Positions 27,425 to 34,859 of a DNA stretch of 64,000 nt are shown in pieces. Positions within the stretch are counted from its first letter, which is position 1; every line of letters starts with the position of its first letter. Under the pieces are notes generated by a model. That model had not been told where the DNA came from. It saw only the letters and a program-made list of their open reading frames with translations, and made no database searches. Origin of the DNA: Minisyncoccia bacterium (lineage in GTDB: Bacteria; Patescibacteriota; Minisyncoccia; Phycocordibacterales; CAJBRS01). Location of the stretch: assembly GCA_038215155.1 (NCBI GenBank), contig JBBQRF010000001.1, forward strand, positions 54,042-118,041, given 5' to 3'. Made by a program: the position numbers and the translations under genes.

Positions 27425-28453
27425 TCAGTTTTTTAAAACGTCTGAAACCGAAAGACGCGGACTATGTGGTTGCGAAGTGATTGCGCGGCCTACTCGAAAT
27501 ATAAATTGACTATGAAAACCGGGCTTTATAAAAAAATTTAATTTTTCTCGATAATTCGGAGACAAGATGGGTGCTGCCCATACTGCCGTTTTTAAATTGA
27601 ATTGTTCTGCAATTAAGGCGATTCTTTCATAGCATTCCCCCACCTTTATCCAATCAACTTTTGTATCCGTCATGGAACTTAACAAAATATAAGCTGGAGT
27701 ACCGTCAGTGAGTATTTTTAAAGTCGAAGACTTATTAAGGCGATCCATATTAAAAAATTTTACTAAATTAGGAACAATAAAAGATGGTAATAGAGGTATA
27801 CCCATCCCAAATGCAGGGATACCAATTTTGGATTTTGTTATATTATTTTTCACATATGGACTGAGTTCTCGTCGAAATTTTGAATTGTCCATTAATTCTA
27901 TATTTGAACTAACTATTATATCCGCAATTCCCTCTTTATCTGTATGGCCGTCAACAACGTTTATATTCATCTTAGGATTATCCAACTGAGAAAGTGCTTC
28001 TCTAAATTCTATAGAAAGTGGCTCCCTATGATAATTACTACGATTTACAGATCTTTTTACAATTGAAAAAATCAAGTGAGAAGAATTTTTTCGTATTGCG
28101 GTTTCGTCGAAACGAATGATGGCGACTAGATTTTCATGTATTGCATCAGGAAGATAAGAGACGTCGTATGATAGGCCGTAGTAATCTGCGGCTACACGTA
28201 TGTTTTCGATAGCACACCCCAAATTCATCAATAATAATCTATTATCAGGGTCACCCACCTTTAATTTTCGGAGAGAATTTTGGTAAATAAAAATACTTTG
28301 GTCGCGTATTTCAAAAATCCATGGCTGACTGTTATGACTCGAGGGCGCTAGAACTGCAAAATTAATTAGGAAATGTAATTTTTCTTTCCACGTGCGGCAC
28401 TCTTCGTATTTAGCAAAGTCAATGTCCCAAGGTTTATAATTTTCCTTTTCCAT
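27425..28453 (-). CDS. Acg-type nitroreductase-fold (FMN) protein
   Basis: Start trimmed to MEKENYKPW (28453), 4 nt after the upstream stop. APSSHNSQPWIFEI motif. About 340 aa, the two-lobed nitroreductase size typical of the Acg family. Confidence 0.8.
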   Translation of the reverse strand: MEKENYKPWDIDFAKYEECRTWKEKLHFLINFAVLAPSSHNSQPWIFEIRDQSIFIYQNSLRKLKVGDPDNRLLLMNLGCAIENIRVAADYYGLSYDVSYLPDAIHENLVAIIRFDETAIRKNSSHLIFSIVKRSVNRSNYHREPLSIEFREALSQLDNPKMNINVVDGHTDKEGIADIIVSSNIELMDNSKFRRELSPYVKNNITKSKIGIPAFGMGIPLLPSFIVPNLVKFFNMDRLNKSSTLKILTDGTPAYILLSSMTDTKVDWIKVGECYERIALIAEQFNLKTAVWAAPILSPNYREKLNFFIKPGFHSQFIFRVGRAITSQPHSPRLSVSDVLKN

Positions 28454-28457
28454 ATAA

Positions 28458-30023
28458 TTATTTTTTAACCCACCGTTGTTTGCCTTGTGAATTAAAATAT
28501 TTTGAATGTTGGTAAGGCCACCCAATAATTAACGGAATTACTTTTGAGGGTTCGGTTGAATAAAGATAAGCATATTCTGAATTGTGAGTTCGCAAACCCA
28601 GTATTATAGATTCGGTAATTTGTTTTTTTAATTTGGGATTCCAGCGTATTCCTTTTTTAAGTTCAACGTGTATTTCCAGTATTCTATCCATTTTTTTGTT
28701 CTCACGTTTCATCATGGTAGCCTTTCCTGTTAGATAGCGATTTAAAGGATAGCTGTCGATAATAGACCTAATTTCCTCCGGATAAATGTTTGCACCTCTA
28801 AAAACCATACCTAAGTCTGACCGTGCATAGACATAAACAAAGGGCAACTTTAATATTTGATCAAATATTTTATATTTTAAAATTTCCTTCTCGATACTAA
28901 TTCCACTTTTTTTTAACTTTCTCATCATTTCGTCATAAGTAATCACACCCCCAAGATCTGCAAACTCGTAACGAATAAGCGGAATAGAAGAGCCATAATT
29001 AGTGGCTACTACTTTTTTTCCAACCTCCTCAAAAAAAATACTTTGCGGGTAATATTGACCTATTGTCGGAATATTGGTGGCATGTGGAAAGATGGATAAA
29101 AAAACTTTCGGATTTTCATTGGCAATTTTTCGGATTAAGTTAGACAAGGATGTTTCATGCGCAATCGTTCCTTGTTCAACGGTACCGTAAATATTGATAA
29201 TATCGTTTAAAGGGTTTTTTAACCCAGATTTTTTGACAATATAATTGCGGAATTCCTCGGAATACCCTTCCGCAGCAGTTAAAATACGTAAATTATGTTT
29301 AGACCAATGAATGCCTGCCTCCTTTCCACTATCTAAAATATCTTTTATGAAAGGTGGGTAGCCCATCAAGATAACTTGATCATAAAAAGGAGCGAACTTT
29401 TTAAACGACTGAAGATATAACTCTTTGTTTGTGCCGACCGGTACAAGTGTAAAATCATAACCTTTCTGGGCAATTTTGTTGAAATTCTTGTAGGTAAAGA
29501 TGCCGCCAATCCAAATACCAAGTCCAAAGCCCACTATGCCTAGGGTGCGCTTCTTATCTAATTCAAATTGATTGATTAAAAAAATCTCCGATGCGTGCTC
29601 ATATTGACGATCGTGGTCCTCATCGCGCGGAAAGAAAAAAGGCTCACCAGTAGATCCTGAAGTGGCTGAGATTGTCGTTGCCACGGAGACATCTCGATTT
29701 GGAAAAAGGTCAAGATAATCGTGGCTACGGAGATAAGCGTCCTTTGAAAGAAGCGGTAGTTTATGAAAATCCTTGATAGTGGAAATCCGTCCCTTGAATC
29801 CTTGTTTTCTAATAAATTGGCGATAGGCGGGAACGGTTTCGTAAACATACTTAAATAAATTTATAGCCATATTTTCCCCCTGCCTCTTCCAATATGCTGC
29901 GGGCCGTCTTTTGTAATATGCCAAAGATTTCTCAATCTTGGGAGGAACGAAGTGGGCAAATTTATTTTTCTTTTTGGGGCTAGGCATAGGAATTAAAAAT
30001 CTTTTCGGCCATGATATTGGCAA
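28458..30023 (-). CDS. PaaK / coenzyme-F390-synthetase-like adenylate-forming enzyme
   Basis: P-loop-like SATSGSTGEPFFFPR and the overall length and layout of the phenylacetate-CoA ligase family. The start is uncertain: 30023, 29987 (8-nt overlap with the upstream stop) or 29870. Confidence 0.75.
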   Translation of the reverse strand: MPISWPKRFLIPMPSPKKKNKFAHFVPPKIEKSLAYYKRRPAAYWKRQGENMAINLFKYVYETVPAYRQFIRKQGFKGRISTIKDFHKLPLLSKDAYLRSHDYLDLFPNRDVSVATTISATSGSTGEPFFFPRDEDHDRQYEHASEIFLINQFELDKKRTLGIVGFGLGIWIGGIFTYKNFNKIAQKGYDFTLVPVGTNKELYLQSFKKFAPFYDQVILMGYPPFIKDILDSGKEAGIHWSKHNLRILTAAEGYSEEFRNYIVKKSGLKNPLNDIINIYGTVEQGTIAHETSLSNLIRKIANENPKVFLSIFPHATNIPTIGQYYPQSIFFEEVGKKVVATNYGSSIPLIRYEFADLGGVITYDEMMRKLKKSGISIEKEILKYKIFDQILKLPFVYVYARSDLGMVFRGANIYPEEIRSIIDSYPLNRYLTGKATMMKRENKKMDRILEIHVELKKGIRWNPKLKKQITESIILGLRTHNSEYAYLYSTEPSKVIPLIIGWPYQHSKYFNSQGKQRWVKK

Positions 30024-31068
30024 TAATATTAGGCGCGGTATTTTCTTTTTTGCTTTTTCTTAAAATATTTTGAAGGGTGTTAGGGATTTCCAACACTTGT
30101 TTTAGTACTTTATTTTCACGATATGTCTTATTCTTAAATTCATCGAAAACAGCAATGAGGCCGCCGGCATTAATGACGTAGTCGGGCGCGTATAGAATAT
30201 CCAATTTGTGGAGCAGTACTCCGATATTTTCATTGGCTAATTGGTTGTTGGCACTACCGGCTATGATTTTAGCTCTAATTTCGGTAATAGTCATTGAGCT
30301 AAGGGAGCCGCTCAGGGCACACGGAGAGAAGACGTCGACATTTTGTTTATGAATTTCTTCCGGCTTTACTATAATCACTTTTGGAAATTTGCGGCGGCAA
30401 AGAGCAATGGCTTTTGGATCGATGTCAGCTCCATAAATTTTCCCCGCTTCAATTCCAGATTTCTTCATTTCTTTCTCAATCAAGGTAAGAAGGGCGTTTC
30501 CAACCTTACCTAACCCTTGGATAGCGAAACTCCTTCCTTCAAAAGAGGTATTGCCATAAATCTCTTTTAAGCAAACTTTTATTGATTCGAAAATGCCGAC
30601 TGCTGTTAAAAAGGTGGCATTGTCATTGAAACCGACTATTTGATTTTTAGCAGCCTTCATTGAATTGAGGTCGCGTCTAAAGACGCCGGCATCCGTCCCG
30701 GTGACGAAGTGAGTAGAGAGAAAGGCTACTTTTTCGGCGTAACTTCTGAAGAGCTCCTTTCGCTTTTTTTCATCTCTATTCCCCACCTTATCAATGATCA
30801 CTCCCTTGGCGCCGCCACAATCAAGTCCTGCCATGGCGGATTTATATGACATAAGGCGAGATAAGCGAAGAGCATCCTGAAGTGCCTCGTTCAGTGAGCC
30901 GTATTGCCACAAACGTGTAGCGCCGAAAGATGGAATGGAAGGATTAGAACGATGAATAACAATAAATCCTTCTAGTCCGGAAGCTTCATCCTGAAGGTAG
31001 GCCACGAAACGATGATCATCAAACTCTGAAAAATCCTTTATGCTTTTTTCAGCTAAAAAGTCGGGCAT
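29980..31068 (-). CDS. Glu/Leu/Phe/Val dehydrogenase-family protein (Leu/Phe-DH-like)
   Basis: Catalytic-lysine region MSYKSAMAGLDCGGAKGVI and the NAD Rossmann motif IQGLGKVGNAL. About 360 aa, as in LeuDH/PheDH. Confidence 0.8.
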   Translation of the reverse strand: MPDFLAEKSIKDFSEFDDHRFVAYLQDEASGLEGFIVIHRSNPSIPSFGATRLWQYGSLNEALQDALRLSRLMSYKSAMAGLDCGGAKGVIIDKVGNRDEKKRKELFRSYAEKVAFLSTHFVTGTDAGVFRRDLNSMKAAKNQIVGFNDNATFLTAVGIFESIKVCLKEIYGNTSFEGRSFAIQGLGKVGNALLTLIEKEMKKSGIEAGKIYGADIDPKAIALCRRKFPKVIIVKPEEIHKQNVDVFSPCALSGSLSSMTITEIRAKIIAGSANNQLANENIGVLLHKLDILYAPDYVINAGGLIAVFDEFKNKTYRENKVLKQVLEIPNTLQNILRKSKKENTAPNIIANIMAEKIFNSYA

Positions 31069-31073
31069 AGTGT

Positions 31074-32153
31074 TTAAGCGTGAGTTGAATGAGTAATGTC
31101 TGTGGGTGAAATATAACTTCGAATATCTAAATCAGTACTTTCTCCAGAGACGACTTTCTTCAGCATGGCAGTTACGACGACGCCGCCTAAAATTGCGGCG
31201 GAGCCAAGCTGAGGCCAAGAAACAAGTTCCTTGGAAATTACACGGGGTACAGCCATCATCATGTTGGGGTCCACTTTGTCGGGTCCTCCGACAATATCTC
31301 CGATAATCATTTTGCCCGCCATTTCTTTAGTGAAAGGGCCAGCAGCCAATTTCTTTTTAAAATATTCGACGTCTTTGCCCCATATCTTGGTGTTGCCTAA
31401 ATCGTATCTTTCAACATGGAGAACTACGCCGTCGCCATTATCGGTCACCATTAATACGGCTTTTTTATATTTTATGGCAAGGAGGCGGGCATGAATTTTA
31501 AATGGCATATCATCAATTTCCTCAACAATGCAGTCAATCTTCCCCGCTTTCAATAATTCTTCTAAGTTATCTTCGTTTACGCCATCTTTCAATAACGTTA
31601 CTTCCGCAAAAGGATTGTCTTCGTAGATGCGGCGAGCGGCAATGATGGTCTTGTTGATACCTATCTGATGAGCACCTGCTAAGATTCTGTTTAAATTAGT
31701 GGTGTCGAGCTCGTCGAAATCAGCTAAGACGATCTTATTTGAGATTCCAGCTTGAGTCATGACGAAAGCAATGTTAGAGCCAACACTCATTCCAAGGACA
31801 GCTACTTTATAATCCCGTAATTTTTTCTGAAGATCGGGTGATATTAGTCCGTCGTTTCTGTTAGTCTTCAGGCGATAGTAGTTGTCGGCTTTAACTGTTT
31901 TGATTAAATGATGATTCCATGGGAAATAAACGTGAATAAAATCGTCCTTTTTATCATCGGTGTATTTTTTGAAGTCATCGGTCTTGTAGACTTCTTCTTT
32001 GTCTTGGCCGATGAATGAATGATTATCAATAAAGAACAATTCTTTTAGCTGACGATCAAAAGCGTCAACAACAGTGATATAGGAGTGCTGATTTAGAAAT
32101 TCTTCTACCTTCTCCGAGCTTTCAAAATAAAGCGGTTTTTCAGAAGTGTCCAT
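31074..32153 (-). CDS. ThiF/E1-like adenylyltransferase with an approximately 110-aa N-terminal extension
   Basis: KVAVLGMSVGSNIAFVMTQAGISNKIVLADFDELDTTNLNR matches the ThiF/MoeB Rossmann plus NLxR motif. There is only one Cys, so no CxxC zinc pairs. It resembles the N-terminal half of Rv1355c-family proteins as I remember them. Confidence 0.75.
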   Translation of the reverse strand: MDTSEKPLYFESSEKVEEFLNQHSYITVVDAFDRQLKELFFIDNHSFIGQDKEEVYKTDDFKKYTDDKKDDFIHVYFPWNHHLIKTVKADNYYRLKTNRNDGLISPDLQKKLRDYKVAVLGMSVGSNIAFVMTQAGISNKIVLADFDELDTTNLNRILAGAHQIGINKTIIAARRIYEDNPFAEVTLLKDGVNEDNLEELLKAGKIDCIVEEIDDMPFKIHARLLAIKYKKAVLMVTDNGDGVVLHVERYDLGNTKIWGKDVEYFKKKLAAGPFTKEMAGKMIIGDIVGGPDKVDPNMMMAVPRVISKELVSWPQLGSAAILGGVVVTAMLKKVVSGESTDLDIRSYISPTDITHSTHA

Positions 32154-32273
32154 ATAGATATTATATAACAGATATAAAATAATGGCTCGGACGGGGATAA
32201 TCCGCTATAGATGATACAATGCGTCTTAAATTTATCAATGATAATTATCTCACAAGTATATACTTATAAAGAT

Positions 32274-32789
32274 CTAGTCTTTCCTTTTAAAAATAAACCT
32301 AATAATATGCCAAAATTTAACTTCCCCTCTCATGGTCTTACCATATCCCTCGGTGACGGATTTTTCGATGAGAGATAGGTTAAGAGAATCAATACAAGGA
32401 AGGATTTCCGGAAGATCGAAAAATGACATATTTTTATTGCCCATCCACTCGTCATGGGGACCGAAAAGGCTGAAATACATTACTCCATTAAGAGCTAATC
32501 CCTTTGACATATTAGCCAATATTTTCTTGACCTTTTCTTTATCGGAAATGAAAGAGAGGGTGTTATTGCAGATAATAACATTATATTTTTCAGGTTCGAT
32601 GTGAAAGTTCGTTATATCTGTTCTAATTGCTGATCTATATTCACTCCGAACATCTACGGAAATGACTTTGTAACCAAGTTTTTTAAAATACTCGGAATCA
32701 TCACCTGCTCCACACCCTAGATCAAGCATGTTACCGCTGTCTTTGATCAAGTCGAGCTCGATCATTTTGTTTATATAATGTTTTACCAT
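32274..32789 (-). CDS. small class-I SAM-dependent methyltransferase (TehB-like size)
   Basis: Motif I LDLGCGAGDD, an acidic residue after beta-2 (ISVDV), and NNTLSF. 171 aa. Confidence 0.8.
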   Translation of the reverse strand: MVKHYINKMIELDLIKDSGNMLDLGCGAGDDSEYFKKLGYKVISVDVRSEYRSAIRTDITNFHIEPEKYNVIICNNTLSFISDKEKVKKILANMSKGLALNGVMYFSLFGPHDEWMGNKNMSFFDLPEILPCIDSLNLSLIEKSVTEGYGKTMRGEVKFWHIIRFIFKRKD

Positions 32790-32804
32790 TTTGCTTATTT
32801 AAAA

Positions 32805-32843
32805 AATTGCCCGTACTACTTGTTATGGTGAGCACGGGCAATT
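32805..32843 (-). terminator. hairpin plus T-run between the Cys-tail protein gene and the methyltransferase gene
   Basis: aattgcccgt (32805-32814) pairs with acgggcaatt (32834-32843) across a 19-nt loop, followed on the minus strand by TTTT(TT). The large loop lowers confidence. Confidence 0.45.
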
Positions 32844-32860
32844 GAGTGGTTATAGACAGA

Positions 32861-33376
32861 CTACGTGTTGGCGCAGTTGTGGCAACTCTTGCAGGACATA
32901 CATGAACCACAATCGCCACTTGGTTCTCCGGAATTACCCCAATTTTCGGAGATGACACCGAAAGTTGAGACTGCGACTGATGCCGCATTCAGGACTTTCC
33001 CTTCAAGTGATTCTCCACGACGACGCGGGCGATGATGGATGAAACGTCCAAATCTGGTTAAGCAAAACTCCTCGTAATCCAGAGTGAACAGGATGAAGTT
33101 ATGCCACATCTCATCAATCTTCGGTGGAGGAGCTATGGGCGTCGTGTTGGTAGCGCAGAGATACAAATATAGTTTTGTATCCTCGAAGCAGTGTACTGCA
33201 TCCTCTTCTTTCCATCCGTACTTATCCACCATGCGATGAATCAACGGAAGGAAAATGAATGCCAGAACATACTTAAGATCGACTCGAGACGCTGACTGAT
33301 CGTTAATCTCTCTGTCTTCTTTATCGGCCCGTGTACGCTTCGCACCCGTTTTAGGGGGTACAGCTATTGTTTTCAT
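32861..33376 (-). CDS. DUF1399/GRDP-like domain protein with a C-terminal CxxCxxCxxCxxC tail
   Basis: WKEEDAVHCFEDTKLYLYL...IDEMWHNFILFTLDYEEFC...FGRFIHHRP matches my memory of the W..A...Y.RFL / D..WH.HiL.T..Y..fC / HH.P family. The last 18 aa are GDCGSCMSCKSCHNCANT (checked codon by codon, 32864-32917). Confidence 0.6.
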   Translation of the reverse strand: MKTIAVPPKTGAKRTRADKEDREINDQSASRVDLKYVLAFIFLPLIHRMVDKYGWKEEDAVHCFEDTKLYLYLCATNTTPIAPPPKIDEMWHNFILFTLDYEEFCLTRFGRFIHHRPRRRGESLEGKVLNAASVAVSTFGVISENWGNSGEPSGDCGSCMSCKSCHNCANT

Positions 33377-33428: not shown

Positions 33429-33456
33429 AGTATAATAAAGAAAAGTGATAAGTCAA
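33429..33456 (-). promoter_or_regulatory. candidate promoter of the Cys-tail protein gene
   Basis: On the minus strand: TTGACT (33451-33456), 16 nt, TATACT (33429-33434), about 50 nt upstream of the ATG at 33376. Confidence 0.45.
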
Positions 33457-33650: not shown

Positions 33651-34859
33651 ATGAAAGAATTTCATCTGGAAGACATTCCTGTACGGTTTCACCAAAAAAA
33701 AGATGCTCCAATTTATATCAGAGTTCAGTTTTTGGCTGGAAGTCGCTTTGACGAAAAGGAAGGTACTGCCCACTTTCTAGAACATATGATGTGCGCAGGC
33801 AGCCAAAAATTTACCACCAAGAATTTATTGGCTGAATACATAGAAGCTGTGGGTGGAAATTTCGCCTTAAGCACTAGTAGTGATTATATTAATATTGATA
33901 TCCAGGTTCCGACAAAAGATGAGATGAAGATTGCGGTGGTGATATTAGATGAAATGGTGAATCATTCGCTTTTTGAGCCCGCAACCTTAGAGACTGAGAG
34001 GGGCTCAATCTTGTCCGAACAAGTTATAGCCAAAAATGCACAACGTTCTTATATTCATACAGTATTCAAGAAATTAGCCTATCAAAAAACTGATATTGCA
34101 AAAAATGTCCTCGGAACCAAGGAGTCTGTGATGACTATAACCACGGAGGATCTAAAAAAACACAGGACCAAATATATCCATAGGCAGACTTTAAAAATCT
34201 TAGTTGTGGGAGATATTAGTGAGGAAGAACTCATAAAGGAAATGCGAGGTATAAATTGGGCAACTGGTCCATGTTTTATCGTGGTTAATTTACCCATAGT
34301 AGCAAATCAATTATTTGTCCTTGAAATTTATAATTCAAAAGAGGCTACCCTTCGAGCCGGTTTTAGATTAAGTACTTTTGATATTAAGAATCGAATCTGT
34401 GGGGATATTCTCGCGGAGTTTTTAGGCAGTAGTCGAAGTGGCATTTTAAGTCAAGAACTGCGATATAAAAGAGGTCTGATCTATTCCGCTTCCGCACACC
34501 ATTTTCAATCGATTGATGGGGGTACTTTTTCTGTTACTACCTCCACCGAGGTTAAAAATTTTGCCGAAGTTTTGTCCGTCATTAAACAGATCATAGAAGA
34601 TCTGATCGCTCAGGGAATTCCCGCCTCCACATTGAAATATATAAAATCTAAAATATTAAAATCTATGAAAATAGATTTACAGACCTCTAAAGCTTGGGTG
34701 AATTATATTGAGAATTATGATTTAGAAGAAACAAGCAGATACTTAGAGGATATAAGTGAAGGGGATATAAAAAATTATATCAATCAAAATTTTGCTATAG
34801 ATAAATTTTTTGTGGCCGTGTGCGGTCCAGAAGATCTTAGGATGATTTTAGAAAAGTAG
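33651..34859 (+). CDS. M16 (pitrilysin/insulinase) family zinc peptidase
   Basis: Inverted zinc motif HFLEHM (HxxEH) with a downstream Glu (LETERGSILSE). 402 aa with two M16 lobes. Confidence 0.85.
   Translation: MKEFHLEDIPVRFHQKKDAPIYIRVQFLAGSRFDEKEGTAHFLEHMMCAGSQKFTTKNLLAEYIEAVGGNFALSTSSDYINIDIQVPTKDEMKIAVVILDEMVNHSLFEPATLETERGSILSEQVIAKNAQRSYIHTVFKKLAYQKTDIAKNVLGTKESVMTITTEDLKKHRTKYIHRQTLKILVVGDISEEELIKEMRGINWATGPCFIVVNLPIVANQLFVLEIYNSKEATLRAGFRLSTFDIKNRICGDILAEFLGSSRSGILSQELRYKRGLIYSASAHHFQSIDGGTFSVTTSTEVKNFAEVLSVIKQIIEDLIAQGIPASTLKYIKSKILKSMKIDLQTSKAWVNYIENYDLEETSRYLEDISEGDIKNYINQNFAIDKFFVAVCGPEDLRMILEK

Follow-up and report, generated by a model that had tools for sequence, protein, structure and literature searches.

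Several described systems resemble parts of the arrangement reported here. Methanobactin operons combine the precursor MbnA with MbnB/MbnC, the TonB-dependent MbnT and a MATE exporter, and in the BURP-domain autocatalytic peptide cyclases of plants, which are eukaryotic and copper-dependent and carry CH motifs, the core peptides and the domain that processes them share one chain. The NHLP and Nif11 families, reportedly described by Haft and co-workers in 2010, are long-leader precursors of ribosomally synthesized and post-translationally modified peptides (RiPPs). As far as is known, their leaders, which terminate in a GG cleavage motif, are in every case acted on by separate LanM, radical S-adenosylmethionine (SAM) or YcaO enzymes. 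Here we deal with a 64,000-nucleotide (nt) stretch of a Minisyncoccia bacterium (GCA_038215155.1, contig JBBQRF010000001.1, positions 54,042 to 118,041 of the forward strand), called the window in the following, in which one gene encodes a PF27765 protein with a Cys-rich C-terminal tail. The PF27765 domain, and likewise the protein and the gene carrying it, is designated F throughout. Loci in which the tail is part of F are referred to as fused, and those in which a separate peptide gene precedes a tail-less F as split. Our data point to a large undescribed RiPP-like maturation system in which the ThiF and nitroreductase genes further downstream are not involved. The locus is defined by the following features:

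32861..33376, reverse strand: coding sequence of the 171-residue PF27765 (UCP032817-like) protein with the Cys-rich C-terminal tail, stop codon counted in
32939..33277, reverse strand: conserved helical domain, residues 34-146
32864..32917, reverse strand: Cys-rich tail GDCGSCMSCKSCHNCANT, the last 18 codons by translation, a putative fused core peptide
32801..32843, reverse strand: intrinsic-terminator/attenuator-like hairpin (32805-32843) with U-run (32801-32804), between the stop codon after the tail and the methyltransferase start
33429..33456, reverse strand: promoter-like site of the sigma-70 type (TTGACT-16-TATACT) ahead of the PF27765 gene, matching 10 of 12 consensus positions

Like the NHLP and Nif11 precursors, tail-bearing F proteins start with a conserved domain of protein size and end in a short core that is hypervariable and often rich in Cys, and relatives of the window locus possess export by HlyD and a C39-type ATP-binding cassette (ABC) transporter. 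Unlike these precursors, F also occurs free-standing on the enzyme side of the attenuator, has an invariant D/H/H set and lies near no known RiPP maturase. As in the BURP proteins, substrate and putative processing domain are united in one polypeptide, and split and fused forms exist within one family. However, no relation in sequence or fold between F and BURP domains was detected, and autocatalysis by F would be hypothetical. The likeness to methanobactin operons consists in a short Cys-containing precursor, a TonB-dependent receptor in the split loci of Bacteroidota and, in some of these (L033, L049), an additional MATE exporter together with a methyltransferase of the window's family. By analogy, this context suggests that the Bacteroidota systems may produce a metallophore. 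In contrast to methanobactin operons, the neighbors scanned included no homolog of DUF692/MbnB or MbnC, the precursors match no curated family, and the window locus has neither receptor nor exporter; its neighbors are the methyltransferase, ThiF, an ELFV dehydrogenase, a PaaK-like protein, a nitroreductase, a histidine kinase and an M16 peptidase. SCIFF and other radical-SAM-matured peptides likewise bear a C-terminal core rich in regularly spaced Cys, but here there is neither an NCBIfam SCIFF match nor an adjoining radical SAM gene, and the peptide is fused to a 150-residue domain. The analogies to SCIFF and methanobactin drawn in a preliminary description of this locus therefore did not hold. 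In all, the membership tests supported none of the known classes considered (DUF1399, SCIFF, methanobactin, microcin C and thiazole/oxazole-modified microcins, TOMM).

The window protein ends in ...GEPSGDCGSCMSCKSCHNCANT, followed by a TAG stop codon. Translation bears out what had been said of its tail, namely five Cys at strict three-residue spacing encoded by codons 32864-32917. This five-Cys CxxC run is the only one in the six frames of the whole window; 200 shuffled windows yielded 0.005 such runs on average, and Cys accounts for 0.57% of the residues in long open reading frames (ORFs). In the AlphaFold2 model of the protein, the tail is disordered, with a predicted local distance difference test score below 50. 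The promoter that had been assigned to the gene is likewise in place (33456..33429, reverse strand, 10/12 matches); with nine promoter-like sites in the region against 5.5 ± 2.3 expected from shuffles, it is to be read as a consensus match only.

The strongest insight into the role of the tail comes from the comparison of fused and split loci, which were sampled from species-representative genomes (79 loci) and metagenomes (72 loci), with many of the loci coming from metagenome-assembled genomes. The F proteins of Bacteroidota, Cyanobacteria and Gammaproteobacteria have no Cys tail and carry a helical extension (...YDxLGEETxxKWFxxYPxKYS...) instead. Almost all F genes of these groups are preceded by a small ORF on the same strand, which encodes a leader plus a Cys/His-rich end and terminates within ~100 nt upstream. 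Tail and upstream peptide are complementary among the 131 distinct complete family ORFs: where the Cys tail is present, an upstream peptide was found once and was absent 54 times, and where the tail is absent, the peptide was present 55 times and absent 21 times (Fisher p = 3e-18, uncorrected for phylogeny). Besides, both forms have motifs in common. The motif CG[PD]GxC occurs 22 times in the 1.2 M six-frame residues of the loci, 15 of these in F tails, and is also found in the upstream peptides of three loci. The end of the window tail, CKSCHNCANT, resembles CSNCGHCKATL of Bacteroidota, a likeness that is short.

The stand-alone peptides include MQNSEKKATLVAAIIALKAVGG-THCSNCGHCKATL in Terrimonas and Agriterribacter, a close variant, THCSKCGHCTATL, in Flavobacterium, and further variants of the THCSNCGHCKATL-type ends (HCCGGSHCC, GHCGGHCGGSF, HCSGSTHC). 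Other types are ...ELLKISGG-IGCSGKWIGCGPGYCVGDCPANCLSHC... in Flavobacterium, ...LKGIYGG-VACTAPPKPIVITQCYICTVT... in Chryseobacterium and Kaistella, ...LVEIVGG-...NCGPGSCHSACNSWCHNWC... in Tolypothrix and ...LLDNVGG-AAALERGFCLEFCLELCFELCFDAV in Alteromonas. Position, length and sequence of these ORFs are kept across genera, and their codons differ 288 times at the third position compared with 178 and 156 times at the others. Judged by this conservation and third-position bias, the upstream mini-ORFs behave as real genes, with the appearance of precursors. Some of the peptides have double-glycine leaders and adjoin a C39-ABC exporter and HlyD. In split loci, F usually overlaps or abuts the next gene, which is of three kinds: i) c2 (~300 residues, with a weak PqqD-like end), followed by TonB-dependent receptor, DUF4374 and ABC/DUF3526 genes, ii) an S9 hydrolase, with or without C39-ABC exporter and HlyD, or iii) HlyD and C39-ABC exporter directly. 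Neither the stand-alone peptides nor c2 matched an NCBIfam or Pfam family above threshold, the only hits being sub-threshold Cys-rich look-alikes. An identity of the ~300-residue neighbors c2 and c8 with MNIO/DUF692 proteins was ruled out, since Pfam assigns c8 to the S9 alpha/beta hydrolases and c2 has the weak PqqD-like end.

Some of the split loci deserve a separate description. In the Bacteroidota loci L027-L069 and L114-L138 (e.g. L042:9799-16850), a peptide of 33-40 residues ending in HC..HC (THCSNCGHCKATL and variants) is followed by the hairpin, PF27765, c2, an ABC ATPase, the TonB-dependent receptor, DUF4374 and DUF3526 permeases, an arrangement with the looks of a metallophore-type peptide system that has gone unannotated in cultivable genera. 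Small membrane-anchored proteins of 106-132 residues, with a His-rich stretch, CxxC(E/D)(Y/F) and a conserved C-terminal (R/K)GPP, recur in the loci of Chitinophagaceae and Sphingobacteriaceae and have no Pfam or NCBIfam match. They lie ~500-900 nt upstream of F in L030, L031, L038, L041, L042, L047, L055, L056, L059, L061, L064, L069 and L075, and downstream of c2 in L027, L035 and L036. The gammaproteobacterial F proteins of L052, L053 and L063 (Shewanella, Alteromonas) end in ...(A/S)GAA; one or two peptides with aromatic-rich Cx3Cx3Cx3C cores (FCLEFCLELCFELCF, FCWEFCWEMCWSMCF) are encoded upstream, and HlyD and C39-ABC exporter follow directly downstream. In Cyanobacteria, large beta-lactamase-fold proteins (L050:10653-12848, L076:6926-8896), one with polyglycine-hydrolase-like BTRD1 repeats, stand beside double-glycine Cys-rich precursors, for which they could be processing or immunity factors.

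A second line of evidence is the hairpin. In the window, a single unpaired base breaks the stem of 15 base pairs, and the predicted folding energy of -21.5 kcal/mol (z -4.5) is reached by one of 200 dinucleotide shuffles. The T-run hairpin previously noticed between the tail gene and the next gene is therefore present, and with its stem-loop and directly following U-run it has the form of a rho-independent terminator/attenuator; a consensus terminator scan skipped it because the loop exceeds the limit of 8 nt. From the U-run to the methyltransferase ATG (32789) it is ~15 nt, and no promoter-like site was found in between. For a survey of all loci, the 60 nt after each stop codon were folded, and folds with a minimum free energy (MFE) of -12 kcal/mol or lower were counted as strong. 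Such folds follow 95% of the stand-alone peptide genes (n=57, median MFE -19.8) and 85% of the F genes in fused-tail loci (n=53, median -19.0), compared with 5% of the F genes in split loci (n=57, median -6.9) and 34% of the controls, i.e. other ORFs of at least 200 residues in the same loci (n=945, median -8.7). Against the controls, the difference is significant for stand-alone peptides (Mann-Whitney p = 2e-18) and for fused F (p = 4e-15). The hairpins differ in sequence from locus to locus and agree in position. The F genes of split loci come after the hairpin, on the side of the enzymes. A strong stem-loop hence follows the Cys-rich coding end, whichever gene bears it, and this is a property of the whole family. 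The order of precursor, hairpin and enzymes, to which the preliminary description had referred, is accordingly found family-wide, with a strong fold after the peptide end in 85-95% of loci versus 5-34% elsewhere. Because the tail is complementary to the upstream peptide and the hairpin moves with the end of the peptide, the tail has the looks of a precursor or core that has been fused, and F those of its dedicated partner.

In the subfamily nearest to the window protein, which is mostly patescibacterial, nearly all proteins carry a Cys-rich tail of hypervariable sequence. The tail classes comprise CSCSNWCQCS, C(S/A)(P/G)STNCQ.., SCGPGVCGASTNCQ(S/G), CAPVACGHR and CGCxxACNxD; the last 30 residues contain two to eight Cys, and C159 and C165 are the only tail Cys conserved to at least 90%. 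The F-tail proteins are organized like RiPP precursors, in which a recognition part that is conserved precedes a short C-terminal core of hypervariable sequence. Only the four closest sequences, P0001 (the window protein) to P0004, keep the strict CxxC x4 pattern. An alignment check of the Cys periodicity and the terminal ANT, suggested in the preliminary description, turned out negative: the periodicity is confined to this clade, and ANT is not kept even there, the three closest companions of P0001 ending in SSN, GDGG and NSQ. A near-identical SCGPGVCGASTNCQ tail together with an F-GNAT module is found on contigs labeled Saccharibacteria/Paceibacterota and on large ones labeled Sphingomonadaceae, Roseicyclus and Pseudomonadota (L009, L011 and L012 compared with L008, L010, L014, L016, L018 and L019), which reflects either horizontal transfer or mislabeled bins. 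L012 also bears another F gene, which is divergent and encoded on the other strand.

F itself is annotated as PF27765 ("UCP032817-like") in the window protein and all of its 34 homologs (E<=4e-20). The assignment is based on precomputed Pfam annotations; the local Pfam copy predates the PF27765 model, and the window protein matched neither this older copy nor NCBIfam, even at E<=10. A PF27765 profile search recovered 12,708 cluster representatives (50% identity clusters) at E<=1e-3. Across 29 diverse members from five phyla, among them Patescibacteria, Bacteroidota, Cyanobacteria and Proteobacteria, D88, W91, H92, Y101, H115 and P117 are invariant and R48, C105 and H114 nearly so. The window protein carries the family motif DExWHNFILFTxxYxxFC ... 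HHxP, with F94-T98 invariant or nearly so. The signature initially recognized in it (WHNFILFT..Y..FC and HHRP) is thus genuine and invariant or nearly so family-wide. The invariant D/H/H and the near-invariant C and H, which persist across phyla and peptide types, suggest an active or metal site, and the D/H/H pattern would fit such a site better than a variable binding or immunity protein. F is probably an enzyme, catalytic or metal-dependent. AlphaFold2 predicts all-helical proteins of 110-190 residues; no solved structure related to F by fold turned up, and no literature on PF27765/UCP032817 or its link to peptides was found. Nor did the literature searched contain anything relevant on RiPP metallophores of Bacteroidota or on Cys-rich RiPPs of Patescibacteria.

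The label DUF1399/GRDP-like (GRDP, glycine-rich domain protein) given to the gene at first had to be abandoned. With hmmscan, neither the window protein (E<=10) nor the 29 diverse F members (E<=5) matched PF07173, so membership was rejected for all 30. GRDPs presumably resemble F in a D..WH....L.....Y...C motif and in frequent Gly/Cys-rich C-termini, a likeness that may hint at a remote superfamily link and is not accompanied by a PF07173 match in hmmscan. The published DUF1399 work that we found concerns plant GRDPs only. Some family members are more elaborate: Cys-rich N-terminal inserts (e.g. CCGEPEC, CGCGECGCG) occur in P0003, P0004, P0014-P0016, P0019, P0027 and P0028, P0035 (341 residues) contains two F domains in one protein, and L072:7527-8384 is a tandem pair of F genes with a Cys tail on each.

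Downstream of the window hairpin lies the following gene:

32274..32789, reverse strand: small class-I SAM methyltransferase of 171 residues (Pfam Methyltransf_23/25/11, weakly TehB)

No solved homolog of this protein was detected at E<=1e-3, and no terminator was found after its gene. Of the fused loci, 40 offered 1.3 kb or more of sequence downstream; among these, a small methyltransferase of the window type is found in 17, a GNAT in 12 (six of them also with methyltransferase), an S9-type hydrolase in four and an M16 peptidase in two. One or more of these genes are present in 24 loci, and none in the remaining 16; the one partner present throughout is F itself. No other conserved gene follows tail-bearing F as often as the methyltransferase. 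It comes immediately after F in L001-L004, L007, L015, L017 and L046 and also adjoins P0004, and the nearest relative, L080 (P0002), has neither this gene nor, as far as could be found, a decayed copy of it. Since all 12 GNAT loci carry CGASTNCQ tails, the accessory genes go with the tail type. On the other side of the window gene lies a peptidase gene:

33651..34859, forward strand: M16 (insulinase-type) peptidase (Pfam Peptidase_M16 + M16_C), divergent from the PF27765 gene

An M16 homolog adjoins F in L003 (F-methyltransferase-M16, same strand) and in L006. With two to three loci, an association of this peptidase with F is possible and weakly supported, and could be inherited synteny.

Taken together, we consider it somewhat more probable than not that a core peptide, in the form of the tail, has been joined to a dedicated partner domain, that F acts on Cys-rich peptides and that the methyltransferase is an optional tailoring enzyme. 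The window gene would be a fusion of the helical, probably metal-binding F domain, a disordered linker and a Cys-rich peptide, the latter being the counterpart of the stand-alone Cys/His-rich precursors upstream of F in Bacteroidota, Cyanobacteria and Gammaproteobacteria. F would recognize and act on the peptide, in trans via the leader in split systems and in cis by the tether in the window. The hairpin after the peptide end may keep the peptide transcript in excess over that of the tailoring gene, with the methyltransferase being expressed through read-through. Tailoring by the SAM methyltransferase would be optional and could be replaced by GNAT and/or S9 hydrolase in sister clades. A Cys-rich peptide that is modified, binds metal or both would then result, whether released or kept attached. 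The data themselves show the complementarity of tail and upstream peptide, the common motifs, the hairpin moving with the peptide end, the neighbor counts and the independence of the ThiF cassette; we infer catalysis by F, modification or cleavage and release of the tail, and any particular chemistry.

Several points weigh against this interpretation. The complementarity statistic ignores phylogeny, the likeness of the window tail to Bacteroidota cores is short, and a hairpin after the gene would also fit the ordinary terminator of a monocistronic gene. In the AlphaFold2 model, the tail stays undocked from the domain. With neither fold relative nor literature for F, the modification chemistry is unassignable, and patescibacterial loci have no consistently linked protease or exporter. 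Finally, the tailoring is dispensable, because 16 of the 40 fused loci have no accessory gene and the nearest relative has no methyltransferase. Given this dispensability, the tail might be a mere ligand-binding appendage.

An elaborated form of the latter possibility treats the tail as a permanent metal-, Fe-S- or redox-active appendage of a metalloprotein F, comparable to a metallothionein or mini-rubredoxin, which is neither cleaved nor modified, with F loading or chaperoning the stand-alone peptides. We regard this main rival as doubtful, although it deserves serious attention. It agrees with the two highly conserved tail Cys, with the fit of the invariant D/H/H to a metal site, with the fused loci devoid of tailoring genes and with the patescibacterial loci devoid of conserved exporter or protease. 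The HC...HC dyads of Bacteroidota, moreover, lie beside TonB-dependent receptor, DUF4374 and ABC/DUF3526 transport genes, a context resembling metal uptake. However, tail length, Cys number and spacing are hypervariable, unlike a defined cluster-binding site, and the many stand-alone counterparts with double-glycine leaders and C39 exporters imply secreted products. The recurrence of GNAT, methyltransferase and S9 genes according to tail type also argues against a simple appendage, as does the attenuator-type layout, which parts the peptide from the enzymes as in RiPP operons. On another reading, F would be a bacteriocin immunity or self-protection protein, the patescibacterial tails then being low-complexity extensions without specific function. 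Class II bacteriocin operons have the immunity gene behind that of the precursor, and such loci are mimicked by the order of precursor, small helical cytoplasmic protein, peptidase-containing ABC transporter and HlyD seen in Gammaproteobacteria, Cyanobacteria and Flavobacterium; the size and all-helical fold of F would suit this role, too. Nevertheless, immunity proteins do not keep invariant D/W/H/Y/H/P motifs across phyla regardless of the peptide type, the family is very large, and the fusion of a toxin to its own immunity protein would be senseless. As the tails have motifs in common with the stand-alone peptides and the hairpin moves with the peptide, we consider an immunity function improbable.

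The remaining alternative concerns the genes beyond the methyltransferase:

27425-32153, reverse strand: ThiF-like protein, ELFV dehydrogenase, PaaK-like ligase and Acg/Rv3131-type nitroreductase, then a seven-transmembrane histidine kinase

The preliminary description suggested that the tail may be a substrate of the methyltransferase, the ThiF/E1-like enzyme and the nitroreductase, with C-terminal adenylation or heterocyclization/oxidation among the reactions; these would be comparable to microcin C (MccA/MccB) or TOMM (E1-like/YcaO/SagB) systems. Indeed, F, methyltransferase, ThiF, ELFV dehydrogenase, PaaK-like and nitroreductase genes are co-directional and tightly spaced in the window, and the ThiF-like and nitroreductase proteins belong together, as each of them corresponds to one half of the Rv1355c-family fusion protein. 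This likeness to microcin C and TOMM, however, is restricted to this genome. Of ~150 related F loci, none is adjoined by ThiF-like, ELFV dehydrogenase, PaaK-like or nitroreductase genes, with the sole exception of L081, which is the window's own genome in another assembly. The cassette is likewise missing from the tail-bearing relatives nearest to the window: P0004 lies in the order helix-turn-helix gene, F, methyltransferase, and P0002/L080 has neither cassette nor methyltransferase. Conversely, the ThiF-like protein has 486 homologs, the closest being 56-69% identical and spread across Parcubacteria and Paceibacterota. The order ThiF, ELFV dehydrogenase, PaaK-like (505-513 residues), nitroreductase and sometimes histidine kinase was seen in three contexts, in one of which an aminotransferase upstream of ThiF replaces the ELFV dehydrogenase. 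Neither PF27765 nor the methyltransferase was found in these three contexts, and the cassette, seen also at loci L154 and L155, is better conserved than F (60-69% identity in other Patescibacteria). In the window, a promoter-like site, TTGATA-16-TATCAT (32238..32211), precedes ThiF, and the syntenic locus L008 (DnaK-DnaJ...F-GNAT-S9...HK, HK being a histidine kinase) has no cassette. YcaO is lacking among the window neighbors, the nitroreductase belongs to the Acg/Rv3131 type, and the tail ends in Thr instead of Asn.

The tail therefore does not co-vary with the ThiF-like and nitroreductase genes, and with the contexts examined in both directions, these enzymes were rejected as tail modifiers. 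Because the cassette is absent from other F loci, occurs without F, has its own promoter-like site and is missing from the syntenic L008, it is an independent, housekeeping-like module of Patescibacteria that is a neighbor of the F-methyltransferase pair by chance here. The RiPP notion of the preliminary description is upheld in part, its choice of enzymes is not. What survives of the proposed set of downstream enzymes is the methyltransferase, which recurs in 17/40 fused loci, and we consider a modification of the tail by the entire set highly improbable. As a side note, taken at full ORF length, the PaaK-like and nitroreductase genes run into the genes upstream of them by 44 and 68 nt (29980-30023 and 28458-28525, reverse strand); the true starts are probably further downstream, since homologs are shorter (353 versus 366 residues for the nitroreductase).

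Returning to the tail as a fused core and F as its partner, PF27765 has so far been known as an uncharacterized Pfam family, and its link to peptides, the fused/split duality and the attenuator rule were not found in the curated libraries or the literature searched. On a broader scale, we tentatively propose that PF27765 may mark a large undescribed class of ribosomal Cys/His-rich peptide systems in Bacteroidota, Cyanobacteria, Proteobacteria and bacteria of the candidate phyla radiation (CPR). In this class, a helical metalloenzyme of novel fold would mature or metal-load the peptide, and the fused form would be a self-processing RiPP precursor. Some of the mini-gene peptides look like TonB-imported metallophores, others like bacteriocin-like peptides exported by peptidase-containing ABC transporters, and a new type of metallophore may be represented by the HC...HC peptides beside TonB receptors. 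Several hosts of split systems are cultivable, among them Terrimonas rubra (L042), Flavobacterium hydatis (L020), Mucilaginibacter oryzae (L035), Chryseobacterium proteolyticum (L032) and Alteromonas ponticola (L053), which makes the hypothesis directly testable. If it is true, a role would be assigned to a very large orphan family (12,708 representatives at 50% identity), and hundreds of unannotated genes for peptides of 30-60 residues would exist in cultivable Bacteroidota, Cyanobacteria and Gammaproteobacteria. The natural pair of fused and split forms would pinpoint substrate and partner without experiment, and genome-reduced CPR bacteria would retain a peptide-maturation module.

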